In this document: one piece after another, positions 4,087 to 14,670 of the stretch
Layout of the letters: the number at the start of each line of letters is the position of its first letter
How positions within the stretch are numbered: the first letter of the stretch is position 1
DNA from: a virus
Lineage: Duplodnaviria > Heunggongvirae > Uroviricota > Caudoviricetes
IMG/VR virus record: IMGVR_UViG_3300029102_000023
Reading direction: 5' to 3' (one strand)
DNA: 21,745 nucleotides
The notes under the pieces: model-generated
Seen by the model: only the letters and a program-made list of their open reading frames with translations
Told to the model about the DNA's origin: nothing
Databases searched by the model: none
Position numbers and translations under genes: made by a program

Positions 4087-4668
4087 ATGAACAACTCATG
4101 GTGGCAGGAACTAATGCATTTTTTCCTGCAAGGAATGACACTTAAACAGTTGATTCATATGCTAATCATCCTGATCATATTGATTATTGTTATGCCGGTA
4201 AGCGTAAAAGAATGGATAAACCTGCATAGTCCAGAAATCCTTCCTCATTACTGGATGTATTACATCCTGTTGTTTTGCGTTAGCTATGTGCTTAACGGCG
4301 TTGTTAATTCCGCTTATCACGCTGTGACTGAAAGAATTGAGGTATTCGCTGCTCAGAAGCGCAAATCTAAAGAAGAAAAATATGTGCAAGATTTGTTTGA
4401 TTCGTTAACTCTTGGAGAAAGAGCGTATTTGGCATTCGCTGTAGCCGCTAATAACCAGCTACAAACGGAAAAGGGCGCTCATGAATCAATTTCATTGCTC
4501 AAAAAAGGACTCCTCGTTCGAAGGCCTCCTGCTGTTGGATATCCTGATACCGACCGTTTCGTTATCCCTGAAAGCTATAGACATGAGTGCTACATTAGGT
4601 TTGCCGGGAAGGCAGACAGCCTTATGGATGAACTTATCGCTCAGGATAAGCATGGCAAAAACAAGTAA
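4087..4668 (+). CDS. sieB: Superinfection exclusion protein B (membrane protein)
   Basis: 193 aa with hydrophobic N-terminal segments (LIHMLIILIILIIVMPV, YWMYYILLFCVSYVLNGVV); matches lambda SieB; antisense to the pL operon and convergent with N as in lambda. Confidence 0.9.
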   Translation: MNNSWWQELMHFFLQGMTLKQLIHMLIILIILIIVMPVSVKEWINLHSPEILPHYWMYYILLFCVSYVLNGVVNSAYHAVTERIEVFAAQKRKSKEEKYVQDLFDSLTLGERAYLAFAVAANNQLQTEKGAHESISLLKKGLLVRRPPAVGYPDTDRFVIPESYRHECYIRFAGKADSLMDELIAQDKHGKNK

Positions 4669-4684
4669 TTAGCAAATGAATTTA

Positions 4685-4957
4685 TCATCTCGCCGTCAGT
4701 TGTTTTGATTTCCGGTAGCCTGCCGCGTAAAGAGCTACGTTCGGAAGACAAGTTGAACCTTCATATTTTCTGGTCAACGTTGTCAGAGTTATCACTTCTG
4801 CTCTCATTGCTGGTTTGAGCTTGCATTGCAAGACCACTCGTGAAGGGGTTGGCCTGTGTAGCTTGTCGGAGCTGATCGCCTCCTGACTTTGCAGATTTGC
4901 GCGACGAGCTCTACGGCGAGAAGCTGCGGTGCCTTTAAATTCTGTTTTTCTGGACAT
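4685..4957 (-). CDS. N: N-type transcription antiterminator (non-lambda specificity), 90 aa
   Basis: Position directly downstream of the nutL/pL candidates; arginine-rich motif near the N-terminus (KGTAASRRRARRANLQ); strong GGGAGG Shine-Dalgarno 5 nt before ATG at 4957. The track ORF extends to 5029 but that start lacks an RBS. Confidence 0.6.
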   Translation of the reverse strand: MSRKTEFKGTAASRRRARRANLQSQEAISSDKLHRPTPSRVVLQCKLKPAMRAEVITLTTLTRKYEGSTCLPNVALYAAGYRKSKQLTAR

Positions 4958-5055
4958 GGATTCCTCCCGAATAAACTTTGGCGATGCAATCTCGAAGCTC
5001 CTCCTGAGACGGTTGCTTCGGCATTGCATCCCACAGCTTATGTGGTTGGGTGATC

Positions 5056-5100
5056 TGGCTTTTCAGCCACGTAGTCGAGAGTCGACGTTGTTTAAAGAGC
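5056..5100 (-). promoter_or_regulatory. nutL candidate (boxA GCTCTTTAA plus boxB hairpin TGGCTGAAAAGCCA) on the leftward transcript
   Basis: Minus-strand reading gives GCTCTTTAA...cgactacgt-GGCTGAAAAGCC, nearly parallel to the nutR candidate at 7737-7782 (GCTCTTTG...cctacgt-CGCTGAAAAGCG). Both lie immediately downstream of the divergent early promoters. Confidence 0.5.
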
Positions 5101-5148
5101 CTGCCAGTCTGTTCCATTTGGCTTCCAGCGTCCTGCTGACGGTTAAAT

Positions 5149-5190
5149 AGTACGATATGTACTTTACAAGATCAATACAATTTGTTGTAA
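5149..5190. promoter_or_regulatory. OL/pL region candidate: dyad symmetries AGTACGATATGTACT and TTACAA-N15-TTGTAA
   Basis: Imperfect palindromes upstream of nutL/N; the AGTAC...GTACT motif recurs in the cI-cro intergenic region (AAGTACATATTGTAT). Exact operator boundaries and the -35/-10 elements are not resolved. Confidence 0.35.
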
Positions 5191-5361
5191 GTTGGCGTGG
5201 TTTTTTATAACGCTTTGTATTTAATAGTGTTGTTTTTTAGCGTGGATGTATTGCCTCGGCGATGTAAGGAGAGATCAGAATTGCGTGGTTTAGTGGGTTG
5301 CATCTATTTATTTTTCAATAAATATAATTGGTTATGTGTTTTTAGGTGGGCGAACGTGAGG

Positions 5362-5388
5362 CAAAGAAAACCCGGCGCTGAGGCCGGG
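5362..5388 (-). terminator. Rho-independent terminator downstream of the cI-geneA-geneB operon
   Basis: Inverted repeat CCCGGC(5371-5376)/GCCGGG(5383-5388) with 6-nt loop; A-rich run 5364-5370 on plus strand gives T-run TTTTCTT after the hairpin on the minus strand; 6 nt beyond the gene B stop. Confidence 0.6.
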
Positions 5389-5393
5389 TTGTA

Positions 5394-6146
5394 TTATGCT
5401 GCAAGTCTCTTAACCCAAGTCTCTCTTTTGGAGAATGGTAGAACTTGGCTTGATTCATGGAAGAGTAAGGAGAGTTGTTGCATTTGATCACCAATTGCTT
5501 CGCTGTCTATAACAACAAATCTGTTGTTATACTCCTCACTTGAAGCTTTAAGATCAATTAGTTTCCCAAGCAATGAGTAAGCACTATTCCAGCTTCCTCC
5601 GTGTTTCACGCTTGATGTAAAAACGTATTTAGGTATGTCGGTTTTTATTGTTACAGGGACGGTAATTTGATGTCCACTCAAGCCATATACGTTTTCACGA
5701 AGAGAAAGTGCGTCTCTAAGCTCTGTGTGATATAGATAATCAATAACCATACTTTCAAACTTTTCAGCTTGAACTGGCTGATACCAGTCTAACGACAAAG
5801 TTGATGCGAGTATACCAGCTCTAATTATGTTCGATGTAATCGCACCGACATCCTTTTCTGTTGCCCAAGCAATGATTTCTCCTCGAGCATTGAGTTCTGC
5901 GCCTTCTTTAAGCAGTAATTGTCGTATCTCATCAAGTCGTTTTTTGGTAAGCGAGATCCCTCTTGCCTCCATATTCATTAAGGCATCGCATCTGTCACTA
6001 ACTAAATACCTACCATTGACTTCACGGATAAAGGCACCGACATGCTCTCCATCATCACAGTAAGTGAATGGACTGATAATTCTCAAGGTCTTGCCTATTG
6101 GATGGCATTCGAAACCTAGTTGTGAGATCACTGTTGAGCACATCAT
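5394..6146 (-). CDS. Unknown protein B, 250 aa (second gene of the two-gene cassette in the rexAB-equivalent position)
   Basis: Long intact ORF; ATG at 6146 overlaps the gene A stop (ATGA), indicating translational coupling; no obvious transmembrane segments; family not recognised. Confidence 0.7.
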   Translation of the reverse strand: MMCSTVISQLGFECHPIGKTLRIISPFTYCDDGEHVGAFIREVNGRYLVSDRCDALMNMEARGISLTKKRLDEIRQLLLKEGAELNARGEIIAWATEKDVGAITSNIIRAGILASTLSLDWYQPVQAEKFESMVIDYLYHTELRDALSLRENVYGLSGHQITVPVTIKTDIPKYVFTSSVKHGGSWNSAYSLLGKLIDLKASSEEYNNRFVVIDSEAIGDQMQQLSLLFHESSQVLPFSKRETWVKRLAA

Positions 6147-6700
6147 ATTCCAAACCCCATTTGCCCCGACTCATCTTCAAGCGGTAAAGGTATTCTCCCA
6201 GAGTAAGTTATGTTCAGATGTTTACAGAAGTAATTCCAATACCCTACCAGGTCATCTGGGTTTATGTCATCTTCGATTGGAAACGCTATTCTATCACTAT
6301 AGTATCCAGCTTCTTCATAGTATACATGGTAGTGAGCACCGTAAATGATATCTTGGTACTTCGGATGATCGACCTTGTAACTATTCGTGTGTTTGTCAAA
6401 GTGATAGGTATCTACCGCGAAAACCCTCTTGTTATGATAGAAAGCAATAATATTTATTTTAGGGTAAGAAATCGGGTCATCAGGTTCTGAATCCTGATCT
6501 GGTTTCCATTTCAGTTCAAACTTTAGCCCTTGTATAGGTATACAATCCTCATCCAAGGGGATGATATGGGCTTGTAGCCACATATCAGAGCGACTTGGTT
6601 TCTGTTTCCATTTAACGCCAGAAAAGTTAACTATTTTTTTACAATAAAGTACTTTATCAACTTCTACTTGGCTTGGCTGATAATCATCTATTTTTGCCAA
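6143..6700 (-). CDS. Unknown protein A, 185 aa (first gene of the cassette downstream of cI)
   Basis: Intact ORF 39 nt downstream of the cI stop on the same strand; acidic, Tyr/His-rich, no hydrophobic segments; the track start at 6700 is a TTG codon (next in-frame ATG is at codon 40), so the true start is uncertain. Confidence 0.65.
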   Translation of the reverse strand: MAKIDDYQPSQVEVDKVLYCKKIVNFSGVKWKQKPSRSDMWLQAHIIPLDEDCIPIQGLKFELKWKPDQDSEPDDPISYPKINIIAFYHNKRVFAVDTYHFDKHTNSYKVDHPKYQDIIYGAHYHVYYEEAGYYSDRIAFPIEDDINPDDLVGYWNYFCKHLNITYSGRIPLPLEDESGQMGFGI

Positions 6701-6739
6701 TGTTTACCGCCCTGTAAATTGTAGATAAAAGTGGTTTCA

Positions 6740-7399
6740 TCACCCAAACGTCTCTTCAGGCCATTGGCTGGCGATAACTTTCCCCACAACGGAACAACTC
6801 TCATTGCATGGGATCATTGGGTATTGTGGGTTTAGTGGCTGTAGAAACACCTGACCGCTATCCCTGATCAGTTTCTTGAAGGTAAATTCATCACCACCAA
6901 GTCTGGCTATGCAGAAATCGCCGGGCTCAACAGCTTGCTCAGGGTCAACCAGAATTAACATCCCGTCAGGAAAGCTGGGTTTGGAACCTGTTGGTGCGGT
7001 CATTGAGTTACCTTCAACCTCAAGCCAGAATGCAGAGTCACTGGCTTTTTTGGTTGTGCTTACCAATCTCTCCGCATCGCCTTTGGTAAAGGTTCTGAGT
7101 TCTGGAGAGAACATCCCAGCCTGAACATGAGAAAAAACAGGGTACTCATATTGTTTTTTAACTGGGGCCGATGAGTATTCGCCAACAGGTGAAAATGTCC
7201 CGTCGTGGTTGAATGATATGTTATCAATACCAAGGTATTTAAACACCACACCAATATCACTAAGAGATGGATGACGAGATCCGCGCAACCAGTGTCCAAT
7301 CCCACCCTGCGTCATACCTAGCTCTTCGGCTAACTTCTCTTGAGTTATGCCGAGCTCTTTCATTCTGGATCTAGCCAGTTCATACCATTTCATTTTCAT
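6740..7399 (-). CDS. cI: CI-type prophage repressor (N-terminal HTH, C-terminal LexA/S24-like autocleavage domain)
   Basis: HTH-like segment [23 protein letters not shown]; C-terminal domain with GNSM serine motif and downstream FKKL lysine; divergent from cro. Track ORF begins at a TTG (7441); ATG at 7399 or 7393 more likely, the latter with AAGGA 7 nt upstream. Confidence 0.9.
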
Positions 7400-7440
7400 G
7401 TCCTTATTATTACGCTCTGTACTGGAACCATCCATGCACA

Positions 7441-7510
7441 ATGTGTATTTTTACTTGTATTCGCAAAGTACATATTGTATTTTTTTATTCGTGTTTACTA
7501 TGGAGGGCAT
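7441..7510. promoter_or_regulatory. OR/pR/pRM region candidate between cI and cro
   Basis: Contains dyads TACTTgtattcgcAAAGTA (7452-7470) and AAGTACATATTGTAT (7466-7480), -35/-10-like hexamers (TTGTAT, TACTAT) and a GGAGGG Shine-Dalgarno before cro. Confidence 0.4.
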
Positions 7511-7782: not shown

Positions 7783-7867
7783 GTTCCAAGATATCTGACC
7801 AACTAAGGCCATATGCGTTTCCACGCATACCTTTCAACTAACTATTCACTATTGGAAATCTTAAGAA

Positions 7868-8164
7868 ATGGAAAGAACAAGTTACAGCAAACTATCACAG
7901 CGTGACGTTGATCGCGCAGAAACAGATTTACTTATCAATCTGTCAGCTATTACCCAGCGCGGTCTGGCAAAGATGATTGGCTGTCATGAATCGAAGATAA
8001 GCAGAACGGACTGGAGATTTATTGCTTCGGTCTTGTGTGCTTTCGGAATGGCATCAGACATCAGTCCGATTAGCAGGGCTTTTAAGTATGCGCTTGATGG
8101 ACTCACCAATAAAAAACGCCCGGCGGCAACCGAGCGTTCTGAACAAATCCAGATGGAATTCTGA
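7868..8164 (+). CDS. cII: CII-type transcriptional activator, 98 aa (mosaic: divergent N-terminus, lambda-identical C-terminus)
   Basis: C-terminal 19 residues TNKKRPAATERSEQIQMEF equal the lambda CII C-terminus as I recall it; N-terminal HTH portion differs from lambda. Confidence 0.85.
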   Translation: MERTSYSKLSQRDVDRAETDLLINLSAITQRGLAKMIGCHESKISRTDWRFIASVLCAFGMASDISPISRAFKYALDGLTNKKRPAATERSEQIQMEF

Positions 8165-8196
8165 GGTCATTACTGGATCAATCCACAGGAGTCATT

Positions 8197-12999: not shown

Positions 13000-14082
13000 T
13001 TAGAACTGATAAACCAGACCTACAGCGACGATGTCGTCGGTATCAATACCAGCTGTTTTGGTAAACTTACTATCGTCAATTAAGTTGATTTTGTAATCAA
13101 CAAAAGTGGACATGTTTTTATTAAAGTAGTAAGTAGCACCGACATCGACATACTTGACTAAGTCTCGGTCACCATGAACACCAAGGTCTTTACCTTTTGA
13201 CTGAAGGTAAGCAACAGATGGACGCAGACCGAAGTCAAACTGATATTGTGCTACTGCTTCAAAGTTTTGTGCTTTGTTTGCAATATGGTTATTACCAAAA
13301 ACGGTCATATTCTGAGTTTCAGAATATGTGGTAGCCAGATAGATATTGTTCGCATCATATTTCAGGCCTGCAGCCCATACTTCCGCATTTTTGCCGGAGG
13401 CATTGAATTTGCTCTTACCATAGGCGACCTGACCGTCAGTGCGATCTGATTTAGCATAGGTTGCACCCACGCCGAATCCTTCATACTCATAAGTAGTGGA
13501 GAAACCGAAACCATCACCATTGGCTTCAGTTACGTCAGTGCGGTCATTTTTACCCTGATACTGAGCAGCAAAGTTCAGGCCATCGACCAGACCAAAGAAG
13601 TCGTTGTTACGATAAGTTGCAACACCAGTAGTGCGACCAGTCATGAACACATCTGTTTGGGTCCAGGTATCACCACCGAATTCTGGCAGAACGTCAGTCC
13701 ACGCACCGATGTCGTATGCTACACCGTAGTTACGGCCGTAATCGATTGAGCCGTAATCACCAAATTTCAGGCCTGCAAATGCAAGACGGGTTTTGTCTTT
13801 GGAAGAACCTTGAGATTCAGCACGGTTGCCTTTGAATTCATATTCCCACTGACCGAAACCAGTCAGTTGATCGTTGATTTGGGTTTCACCTTTGAAGCCA
13901 AGACGGGCATAAGTAGTATCACCATCATCTGCATCATTAGAGGAGAAGTAGTGCTTGGCATTAACTTTCCCGTATAGATCCAGCTTGTTACTGTCTTTAT
14001 TATAAATTTCAGCTGCCTGAGCAGACATCGCCATCAGTACTGATGCAGCTACAGCAGAAATTGCCACTGTTAATTTTTTCAT
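13000..14082 (-). CDS. nmpC: Outer-membrane general porin (OmpC/OmpF/NmpC family), prophage-encoded, 360 aa precursor
   Basis: Signal peptide [23 protein letters not shown] then [23 protein letters not shown]... and C-terminal ...VAVGLVYQF (terminal Phe, beta-barrel signature); antisense between Q and the lysis genes as in DLP12. Track ORF start at 14142 is an upstream in-frame extension. Confidence 0.93.
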
Positions 14083-14450
14083 TGTACGCCCTTTTTTTGA
14101 ACTTTTATTAAAAAATGATGTCACTGCGCGATAAATATTCATCTAATCAATGTGATTATTTCAAGATGTAAGTTTTAGTTTCTCATTTAATTTGTGAAGT
14201 AGATCTCTATTTTTATCTGAACCTTTTCTATCTAATCCTATTCATGGCTCTTGTCTGAACAAAAATAAATCTATTAGCTAATTTATATTAATGGCACTTA
14301 TTTATAAGTGCTCTATAATTCTTTAGCTTAATTTAAACAAACTAAAAATAACATCGGAAATTATTAACTGGTTATTTGTTGAAGTTTTCTTATGCATTTG
14401 TGGTGGTGTTTTGAACACTCGGTGGCATTCTCACAAATATCATTTAGTAG

Positions 14451-14478
14451 TTTACGTACGTAAAAAATTGGTTATGCT
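14451..14478 (+). promoter_or_regulatory. Candidate promoter with perfect 14-bp palindrome TTTACGTACGTAAA (possible late promoter pR' or qut-associated site)
   Basis: TTTACG (14451-14456), 16-bp spacer, TATGCT (14473-14478); the palindrome at 14451-14464 overlaps the -35 hexamer; lies ~30 bp upstream of a strong plus-strand terminator and ~190 bp upstream of the holin gene. Confidence 0.3.
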
Positions 14479-14508
14479 GTTAAGAGTGGTTACTTCGTCA
14501 CACAGCTT

Positions 14509-14541
14509 AAACCCGCCGTCGAGCGGGTTTTTCCATTTTTT
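14509..14541 (+). terminator. Rho-independent terminator upstream of the lysis cassette (tR'-like candidate)
   Basis: Stem AAACCCGC(14509-14516)/GCGGGTTT(14523-14530), loop CGTCGA, followed by TTCCATTTTTT. Confidence 0.65.
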
Positions 14542-14670
14542 GAGTCTCGATATTAGCTGATAACCCAATACCTGAGTTATTCACTGACTCCGAATCTGTT
14601 ACGTTTCTGCCTTTATTGCGATACGTAGTATCCCCTTAATTTACACCCGCTTTGTCTGCGAGGTGGGGTT

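Follow-up and report, generated by a model that had tools for sequence, protein, structure and literature searches.

A conserved gene pair beside the repressor of lambda-like prophages as a candidate lysogen-expressed anti-phage module

That prophages carry defence genes as accessory units (morons) beside the repressor gene is established. In phage lambda the segment between cI and the oL/pL region holds two genes, rexA and rexB, which are co-oriented with cI, closed by a terminator and presumably transcribed from pRM and pRE, and which form a replaceable moron of the lambdoid phages; RexB spans the inner membrane several times. Two experimentally validated defences, RemAIN (an ATPase with an immunity protein and a HEPN nuclease) and GiPD474 (a single ATPase), reside in the immunity region of Gifsy prophages of Salmonella (PMC12724215, PMC13043305). 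A further two-gene make-up, a DUF6978-type gene followed by a DUF1828-type gene, is listed in PADLOC as PDC-M24; PDC systems are computational candidates, and PDC-M24 is known as a computational candidate only. Here we describe a pair of genes, A and B, that lies behind the cI repressor gene in a 21,745-nucleotide stretch of a tailed-phage genome (IMG/VR record IMGVR_UViG_3300029102_000023, hereafter the window). The pair matches, A only weakly, the family already flagged as PDC-M24, and we consider A-B to be a lysogen-expressed accessory module, most likely devoted to anti-phage defence or abortive infection, with a probability of roughly 0.55.

The window derives from a lambda-like coliphage, and its region 5300-7500 is 100% identical to Escherichia phages ev207, ev017, PhiR57_1 and PhiR63_2. 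The annotated gene order in PhiR57_1 is exo-bet-gam-kil-cIII-ea10-ral, sieB, N, two hypothetical genes, cI, and cro-cII-O-P-ren-nin-Q, so that A and B correspond to the two hypothetical genes. The features of the locus are as follows.

6740-7435, minus strand: cI repressor gene as annotated in relatives (6740-7441 as the longest open reading frame), with HTH_3 and Peptidase_S24 domains (Pfam E 1.3e-28 and 2.1e-10)
6701-6739, minus strand: cI-A spacer of 39 nt, with a Shine-Dalgarno-like AGGGCGG ahead of the TTG start of A
6143-6700, minus strand: gene A, 185 aa, TTG start, PHROG 2017
5394-6146, minus strand: gene B, 250 aa, ATG start, PHROG 1960
5391-6737, minus strand: exchangeable cargo segment, exactly A, B and the cI-A spacer
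5362-5390, minus strand: intrinsic terminator, AACCCGGCC-TCAGCG-CCGGGTT followed by a T-rich tail, closing cI-A-B before oL/pL
7408-7482, no strand assigned: oR with pRM/pR, three 17-mers at 7408-7424, 7434-7450 and 7466-7482, exact matches to the operators of AP005153
5148-5222, no strand assigned: oL with pL, 17-mers at 5148-5164, 5173-5189 and 5206-5222, with 0-1 mismatch against the operators of AP005153

In PhiR57_1 the repressor gene bears the annotation cI, and in E. coli Nissle that of a LexA-family regulator. The stop codon of A and the start codon of B overlap in an ATGA at 6143-6146, a scan for terminators found no terminator-like site between cI and A, and the terminator behind B, which begins 3 nt past the B stop codon, has a stem of 8 bp (6 GC pairs) at 5369-5390 and a T-rich tail reaching to about 5362. 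The operators were placed by matching those annotated in the homologous Shiga toxin 1 (Stx1) phage record AP005153, and inverted repeats link oR to the oL region. Because oL and oR flank A-B, the pair lies within the immunity region, upstream of pL and N, in the slot of lambda rexA-rexB. The G+C content of A (0.382) and of B (0.406) is lower than that of cI (0.463) and of the whole window (0.470). Protein A is acidic, with an isoelectric point of 5.27, and contains 16 Tyr and 8 His residues. No signal peptide and no segment resembling a transmembrane helix was found in either protein, the maximal 19-residue Kyte-Doolittle means being 0.45 for A and 1.19 for B. A preliminary description of this stretch, made from its letters, had proposed two translationally coupled genes directly downstream of a co-oriented cI and closed by a terminator, the architecture of cI-rexA-rexB, an AT-richer segment than its flanks, an acidic and Tyr/His-rich A, and two proteins devoid of membrane-spanning segments, and all of these features are recovered here.

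That description had also called the segment consistent with a horizontally acquired moron, and the boundaries of homology support an exchangeable moron. In PhiR11_1 and 2G7b, which share the cI of the window, homology breaks off at the top of the terminator stem (5390) and sets in again at the cI stop codon (6738); with the Stx1 phage AP005153 the corresponding positions are 5391 and 6742. Between these points PhiR11_1 and 2G7b carry an unrelated gene pair of 283 and 163 aa (contig L002, 3089-4469), and AP005153 a 173-aa open reading frame designated b63 (contig L013, 2976-3497). Neither alternative cargo has a match in Pfam or PADLOC; found in the same slot, with the same cI and flanks, these genes are further candidates in the hotspot. 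Conversely, the A-B cassette is 98.5% identical in a Stx1a phage whose flanks differ on both sides, and in two IMG/VR contigs (L020 and L022) an A that is 99% identical stands behind a different repressor. The cassette moves as a unit between immunity regions. The terminator itself, in the form AACCCGGCC-N5/6-GCCGGGTT plus a T-run, is nearly unchanged in the 80 nt after B (loci L004-L093), even in loci where the identity of A and B falls to 40-50%, and a hairpin and T-run of the same type follow B in 83 of 88 related loci. As the left junction of the cargo exchange, it may be a module boundary or recombination joint shared among lambdoid immunity regions.

The two genes are conserved as a pair over a wide range. 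A cassette at least 99% identical to that of the window is present in 241 of 5426 complete E. coli genomes (about 4%), always on the chromosome and always in single copy, the carriers including CFT073, Nissle 1917 and the type strain ATCC 11775; the corresponding RefSeq proteins are WP_001062368.1 (A) and WP_000968518.1 (B). Homologues of A and B, full-length in many genera, occur in Salmonella, Klebsiella, Yersinia, Erwinia, Serratia, Photorhabdus, Xenorhabdus, Providencia, Edwardsiella and Aeromonas. Among the IMG/VR loci found with a profile of A (38-100% identity), A is followed directly by B in all 79 that have room for it, the 80th contig coming to an end. The same order was found in the 8 loci with room from betaproteobacterial metagenome-assembled genomes, which were retrieved with a five-sequence subset of the alignment and in which A is just 24-28% identical and the genes mostly overlap by 4 nt. 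Together these make 87 of 87 loci with room to check, which answers the question of synteny raised in the preliminary description: A and B were never found apart. A likewise stands directly upstream of B in all nine genome loci fetched through B. The identities of A and B to their window copies are correlated (r = 0.97), with A diverging faster than B. Nonsynonymous divergence (dN) ranges from 0.09 to 0.68 while synonymous divergence (dS) is saturated, which leaves dN/dS incalculable for most pairs; at the level of sequence, both genes show the signature of purifying selection. The ATGA overlap is present in 79 of 95 loci, and in 91 of the 95 the start codon of A, anchored by script on a conserved MAK motif, is GTG or TTG, which suggests deliberately weak translation initiation of a coupled pair. 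In one IMG/VR contig (L039, 4001-4557) A is split into open reading frames of 58 and 145 aa beside an intact B, either through a frameshift, giving a possible pseudogene, or through a sequencing error.

Protein B contains a domain of the uncharacterised Pfam family DUF1828 (residues 26-110, 33.5 bits against a gathering cut-off of 22), for which it is named in RefSeq as a DUF1828 domain-containing protein, and it is a full-length match to the PADLOC model PDC-M24B (E 4.7e-10; residues 2-249 aligned with positions 4-254 of the 256 in the profile), as are the betaproteobacterial B proteins; an NCBIfam search with B returned nothing. In the AlphaFold model (predicted local distance difference test score, pLDDT, 84.5; predicted template modelling score, pTM, 0.54) B has two domains. 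The N-terminal DUF1828 domain is predicted to adopt a fold like that of type III secretion system (T3SS) chaperones or of DUF2170. The modelled C-terminal domain has the restriction-endonuclease-like alpha/beta fold of the PD-(D/E)xK superfamily and resembles BstEII (10.0), NgoMIV (9.9), PspGI (9.8), Can2 (10.1) and Bax1 (8.6), the values being those of the structure comparison. In an alignment of 21 sequences from Gamma- and Betaproteobacteria, the invariant residues of this domain are Gly 155, Ser 157, Gly 158, His 159, Pro 164, Trp 186, Gly 194, Asp 198, Leu 199, Arg 209 and Trp 244, with Asp or Glu at position 214. The loop G-x-S-G-H is invariant, and its His 159 occupies the place of the first catalytic Asp. 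No conserved D...(D/E)xK was found in this alignment, and no conserved acid-x-Lys stands on strand 3, which reads KYVFTS in the window and FIQPVA in Betaproteobacteria. We therefore rejected B as a canonical PD-(D/E)xK nuclease on account of the missing motif; the model supports an endonuclease fold for B but not the canonical nuclease chemistry.

For protein A, a full HMMER scan of 1.84 billion representatives yielded just 32 clusters. Its invariant residues are Trp 31, Arg 92, Asn 106, His 123, His 125, Phe 158 and Pro 173, and Lys 22, Asp 97, His 104, Gly 121 and Gln 180 are nearly so. The model of A is rich in β-structure, with His 104/Asn 106 and His 123/His 125 placed on β-strands at alternating spacing, and the models of both proteins are globular and suggest soluble proteins. 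No solved structural relative of A was found; a Foldseek search against BFVD returned one uncharacterised phage protein, and the NCBIfam search returned noise. Sequence-profile searches of the PDB gave chance matches only, one of them an artefact in which a designed Kelch-repeat protein matched a short motif six times.

In prophages of Enterobacterales and Aeromonas, a co-oriented open reading frame lies within 400 nt upstream of A in 88 of 89 loci. Clustered at 60% identity, these upstream frames form 22 groups, 21 of them repressor-like; those sampled encode either helix-turn-helix (HTH) proteins with a Peptidase_S24 domain or short HTH repressors of the kind characteristic of Gifsy-type prophages in Salmonella. 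The pair is thus associated with at least 20 different repressors. In six viral contigs (L052-L057, 3609-3950) a DUF3024 gene lies between the repressor and A, immediately upstream of A, and matches the PADLOC candidate PDC-S43 (E 4e-37); together with A-B it would amount to two candidates stacked in one operon. In the Betaproteobacteria the pair occurs without a repressor. Neighbouring genes there encode a methyltransferase and a restriction enzyme of type III (PADLOC E 1e-141 and 0), Dcm together with Vsr and EcoRII, toxin-antitoxin proteins of the Gp49/HTH and PIN kinds, and a primase of the P4 type, and these surroundings are a classical defence-island or mobile-element context. The defence reading gains three independent supports, all of them circumstantial: the PDC-M24 matches, the restriction-modification and toxin-antitoxin neighbours of the distant pairs, and the linkage in Salmonella to short repressors of the Gifsy type, RemAIN and GiPD474 being found elsewhere in the Gifsy immunity region.

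The same neighbourhoods can be read in another way, namely that A-B is a toxin-antitoxin-like addiction module which stabilises the prophage or island, with the acidic A neutralising B and any defence being incidental. The coupled two-gene operon with an acidic, faster-evolving first gene, its residence on mobile elements next to other toxin-antitoxin genes, and the weak start codons of A, which suit tight dosage control, all agree with such a module. Nevertheless we consider it improbable, since no DNA-binding domain that could serve autoregulation was detected in A or B, searches of Pfam, NCBIfam and PADLOC assigned neither protein to a known family of toxins or antitoxins, both exceed the size usual in type II pairs, and their near-constant position behind a repressor suits a lysogen-specific function better than plain addiction. 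Many toxin-antitoxin systems are themselves defence systems, so that this explanation in part overlaps with the one that we prefer.

Morons in lysogen-expressed slots can also serve the fitness of the host, and the pair could use its slot for a lysogenic conversion that has nothing to do with phages, such as metabolism, colonisation of the host or tolerance of stress. Extraintestinal and commensal B2 strains (CFT073, Nissle, ATCC 11775) commonly carry the cassette, and the conserved His cluster of A could suit any small enzyme. This explanation appears slightly less probable still than addiction: the distant homologues adjoin restriction-modification and toxin-antitoxin genes in unrelated Betaproteobacteria, PADLOC has already flagged the family as a defence candidate, neither protein carries a signal peptide or transmembrane segment, and no conserved metabolic neighbours of A-B were found in the loci compared. 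Finally, the tight linkage to repressor genes of many immunity types, and the action on the lambda switch reported for RexA (PMC11077077), would fit a pair that modulates the lysis-lysogeny switch or induction of its own phage, as RexA can bias that of lambda, but this is quite unlikely, given that neither A nor B contains an HTH or other recognised DNA-binding motif and that a pair found with at least 20 unrelated repressors, and with none in the Betaproteobacteria, is unlikely to interact specifically with one switch.

Several observations weigh against the interpretation of A-B as a lysogen-expressed defence module. From genomic association one cannot tell defence apart from addiction or from further functions of mobile elements. 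The matches of A to the candidate family are weak: DUF6978 reaches 22 bits, below the Pfam cut-off of 29.6, and only over the C-terminal third of the profile, and PDC-M24A is matched (E 4.8e-4) only in part, over residues 104-163 in the H...HxH...W..F portion of the protein. Only 3 and 2 of 23 members of the A family match the two PDC-M24A models, and three to five of the 23 match either PDC-M24A or DUF6978; three betaproteobacterial A proteins gave no PDC-M24A match. A metal site in A is possible, as judged from the sequence and the predicted secondary structure. As for expression, it is the layout of the locus from which we infer transcription of A-B by pRM and pRE; a promoter consensus scan gave 5 matches where shuffled sequences would give 6.5, not above chance, and an internal promoter for A or B was dropped for that reason. 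In Salmonella the gap between repressor and A is about 150 nt and could house a promoter of its own. A literature search returned no experimental paper on A, B or PDC-M24; DUF1828 and DUF6978 appear in incidental mentions in unrelated papers only, and searches with the PDC-M24 name, the accessions and the Nissle locus tags found nothing.

If A-B is a defence module, it might operate as follows. The genes would be read from the repressor promoters, pRM and, during establishment, pRE, so that A and B would be present in the lysogen and their synthesis would cease when Cro gains control, in the manner of lambda rexAB. Through the overlap of the A stop with the B start, and from the weak GTG/TTG start of A, the two proteins would be made in a fixed ratio, and they would form a complex. 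Protein A, probably a metal-binding partner (His 104, His 123-x-His 125, Asp 97 and Asn 106), would sense infection, restrain B, or both. The chaperone-like DUF1828 domain of B would bind A or a phage product acting as the trigger, while the restriction-endonuclease-like domain might bind nucleic acid or cleave it by means of a non-canonical centre (Ser 157, His 159, Asp 198, Arg 209 and Asp/Glu 214) and act as effector or sensor. Infection by a heterologous phage would release or activate the effector, upon which either the nucleic acid of the invader would be destroyed or the cell would be stopped, as in abortive infection.

E. coli Nissle 1917 may offer a link between the cassette and a described phenotype. 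In its prophage 3, A and B are EcN_1292 and EcN_1291 and cI is EcN_1293, and the complete resistance of this strain to lambda and Stx phages was proposed by Bury et al. to depend on additional, as yet unidentified genes of prophage 3 (PMC5987069). A different gene of the same prophage, the "phage repressor pr" (EcN_1294), was considered as the counterpart of the window cI and rejected. The published primers for it map to 7822-8192 of the window, where the cII gene occupies 7868-8164, and not to cI (EcN_1293); the effect published for this gene is a cut in the plating of lambda and Stx phages of about 200-fold. From the position of the primers, this "repressor" effect comes from the cII homologue on a high-copy plasmid. 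Taken to its full extent, the interpretation of A-B as a defence module would make the pair the founding and experimentally accessible member of a widespread, unstudied immune system unlike the characterised defences, in which A is a small β-sheet metalloprotein with a new fold, B joins a chaperone-like sensor to an endonuclease fold whose catalytic Asp is swapped for His, and the chemistry of sensing or effect is undescribed (for example metal-independent cleavage of RNA or DNA, or capture of the trigger by the T3SS-chaperone-like domain), and which also accounts for the full resistance of Nissle 1917 to lambda and Stx phages. We regard this combination as a tentative one, with a modest chance of being right in all its parts.

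Other accessory genes are present in the window and its relatives. A superinfection-exclusion gene, sieB, lies at 4087-4668 on the plus strand, just left of N and on the strand opposite to A-B, and constitutes a second exclusion function of the lysogen type less than 1 kb from the cassette; in Nissle an ISEc52 element follows immediately past sieB, and the integrase is truncated. Between pL and N, at 4935-5117 on the minus strand, is a putative gene, a 60-aa open reading frame annotated in RefSeq (WP_000438342.1), overlapping both the nutL region and the 5' end of N. Farther away, the stretch from about 13000 to 14600, downstream of Q, holds an OmpD/NmpC-type porin gene on the minus strand followed by very AT-rich DNA (G+C 0.29-0.33, 14000-14600), and looks like another moron region of the prophage.

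What is new in this locus is that the proteins are uncharacterised, that the fold of A has no known relative and that the active-site pattern of B is non-canonical. Were the proposed function to hold, lambdoid and Gifsy-type prophages would have, next to the repressor gene, a general hotspot for lysogen-expressed immunity and not merely an oddity of lambda, and to this hotspot the window adds a protein pair without a characterised relative. This would bear on host range in phage therapy, on the safety case for Nissle, in which its resistance to Stx phages is invoked, and on the spread of Stx phages, one of which, a Stx1a phage, carries A-B. The hypothesis is directly testable, for PhiR57_1 with A-B and PhiR11_1 with the same cI and other cargo are near-isogenic and provide natural controls. 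Once validated, the mechanism could extend the sensor or effector architectures of bacterial immunity by a new one, and the finding would gain weight with a mechanism that proves to be new or with a role of the pair in the phage resistance of Nissle.

Among the systems to which A-B can be compared, lambda rexA-rexB shares with it the position between cI and oL/pL, the orientation, the closing terminator, the number of genes and the replaceable character, and presumably the promoters. It differs in that the sequences are dissimilar, the folds are other ones and the genes of A-B overlap (ATGA), and in contrast to RexB, a polytopic membrane protein, A and B are both devoid of transmembrane segments, so that superinfection exclusion at the membrane is unlikely for A-B. 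No Rex match was obtained with Pfam, PADLOC or NCBIfam at E <= 1, and PHROGs (E <= 0.01) gives unnamed families only. The preliminary description had stated that neither protein resembles RexA/RexB or any nameable family; the first part stands, but B belongs to DUF1828 and the pair matches PDC-M24. Its call for profile and structure searches has likewise been answered, in that Pfam, PADLOC, PHROGs, NCBIfam and structure comparison gave no identity or homology of A or B with structural or replication proteins of phages. The resemblance to rexAB is a positional analogy only, and being a defence system would not make the pair a Rex homologue.

Like RemAIN and GiPD474, A-B would be a lysogen-expressed moron, and its Salmonella homologues follow short Gifsy-type repressors, the kind that adjoins those two systems, a likeness drawn from the repressors. 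The sequences are unrelated, however, and no ATPase or HEPN domain is found in A or B with Pfam or PADLOC. The sensor-nuclease effectors of the PD-(D/E)xK superfamily (Can2/Card1, NucS, Bax1) and the CCGG-family enzymes (NgoMIV, PspGI, Cfr10I) have, as predicted for B, a non-catalytic N-terminal domain followed by a C-terminal endonuclease fold; B, on the other hand, lacks their conserved D...(D/E)xK, and its N-terminal domain is modelled as T3SS-chaperone-like or DUF2170-like rather than CARF. With PDC-M24, A-B shares the two-gene make-up and gene order. The matches to its models are weak, and A falls below the cut-off for DUF6978, from which we infer that the pair of the window represents a divergent sister branch of PDC-M24 that is specialised to prophage immunity regions.

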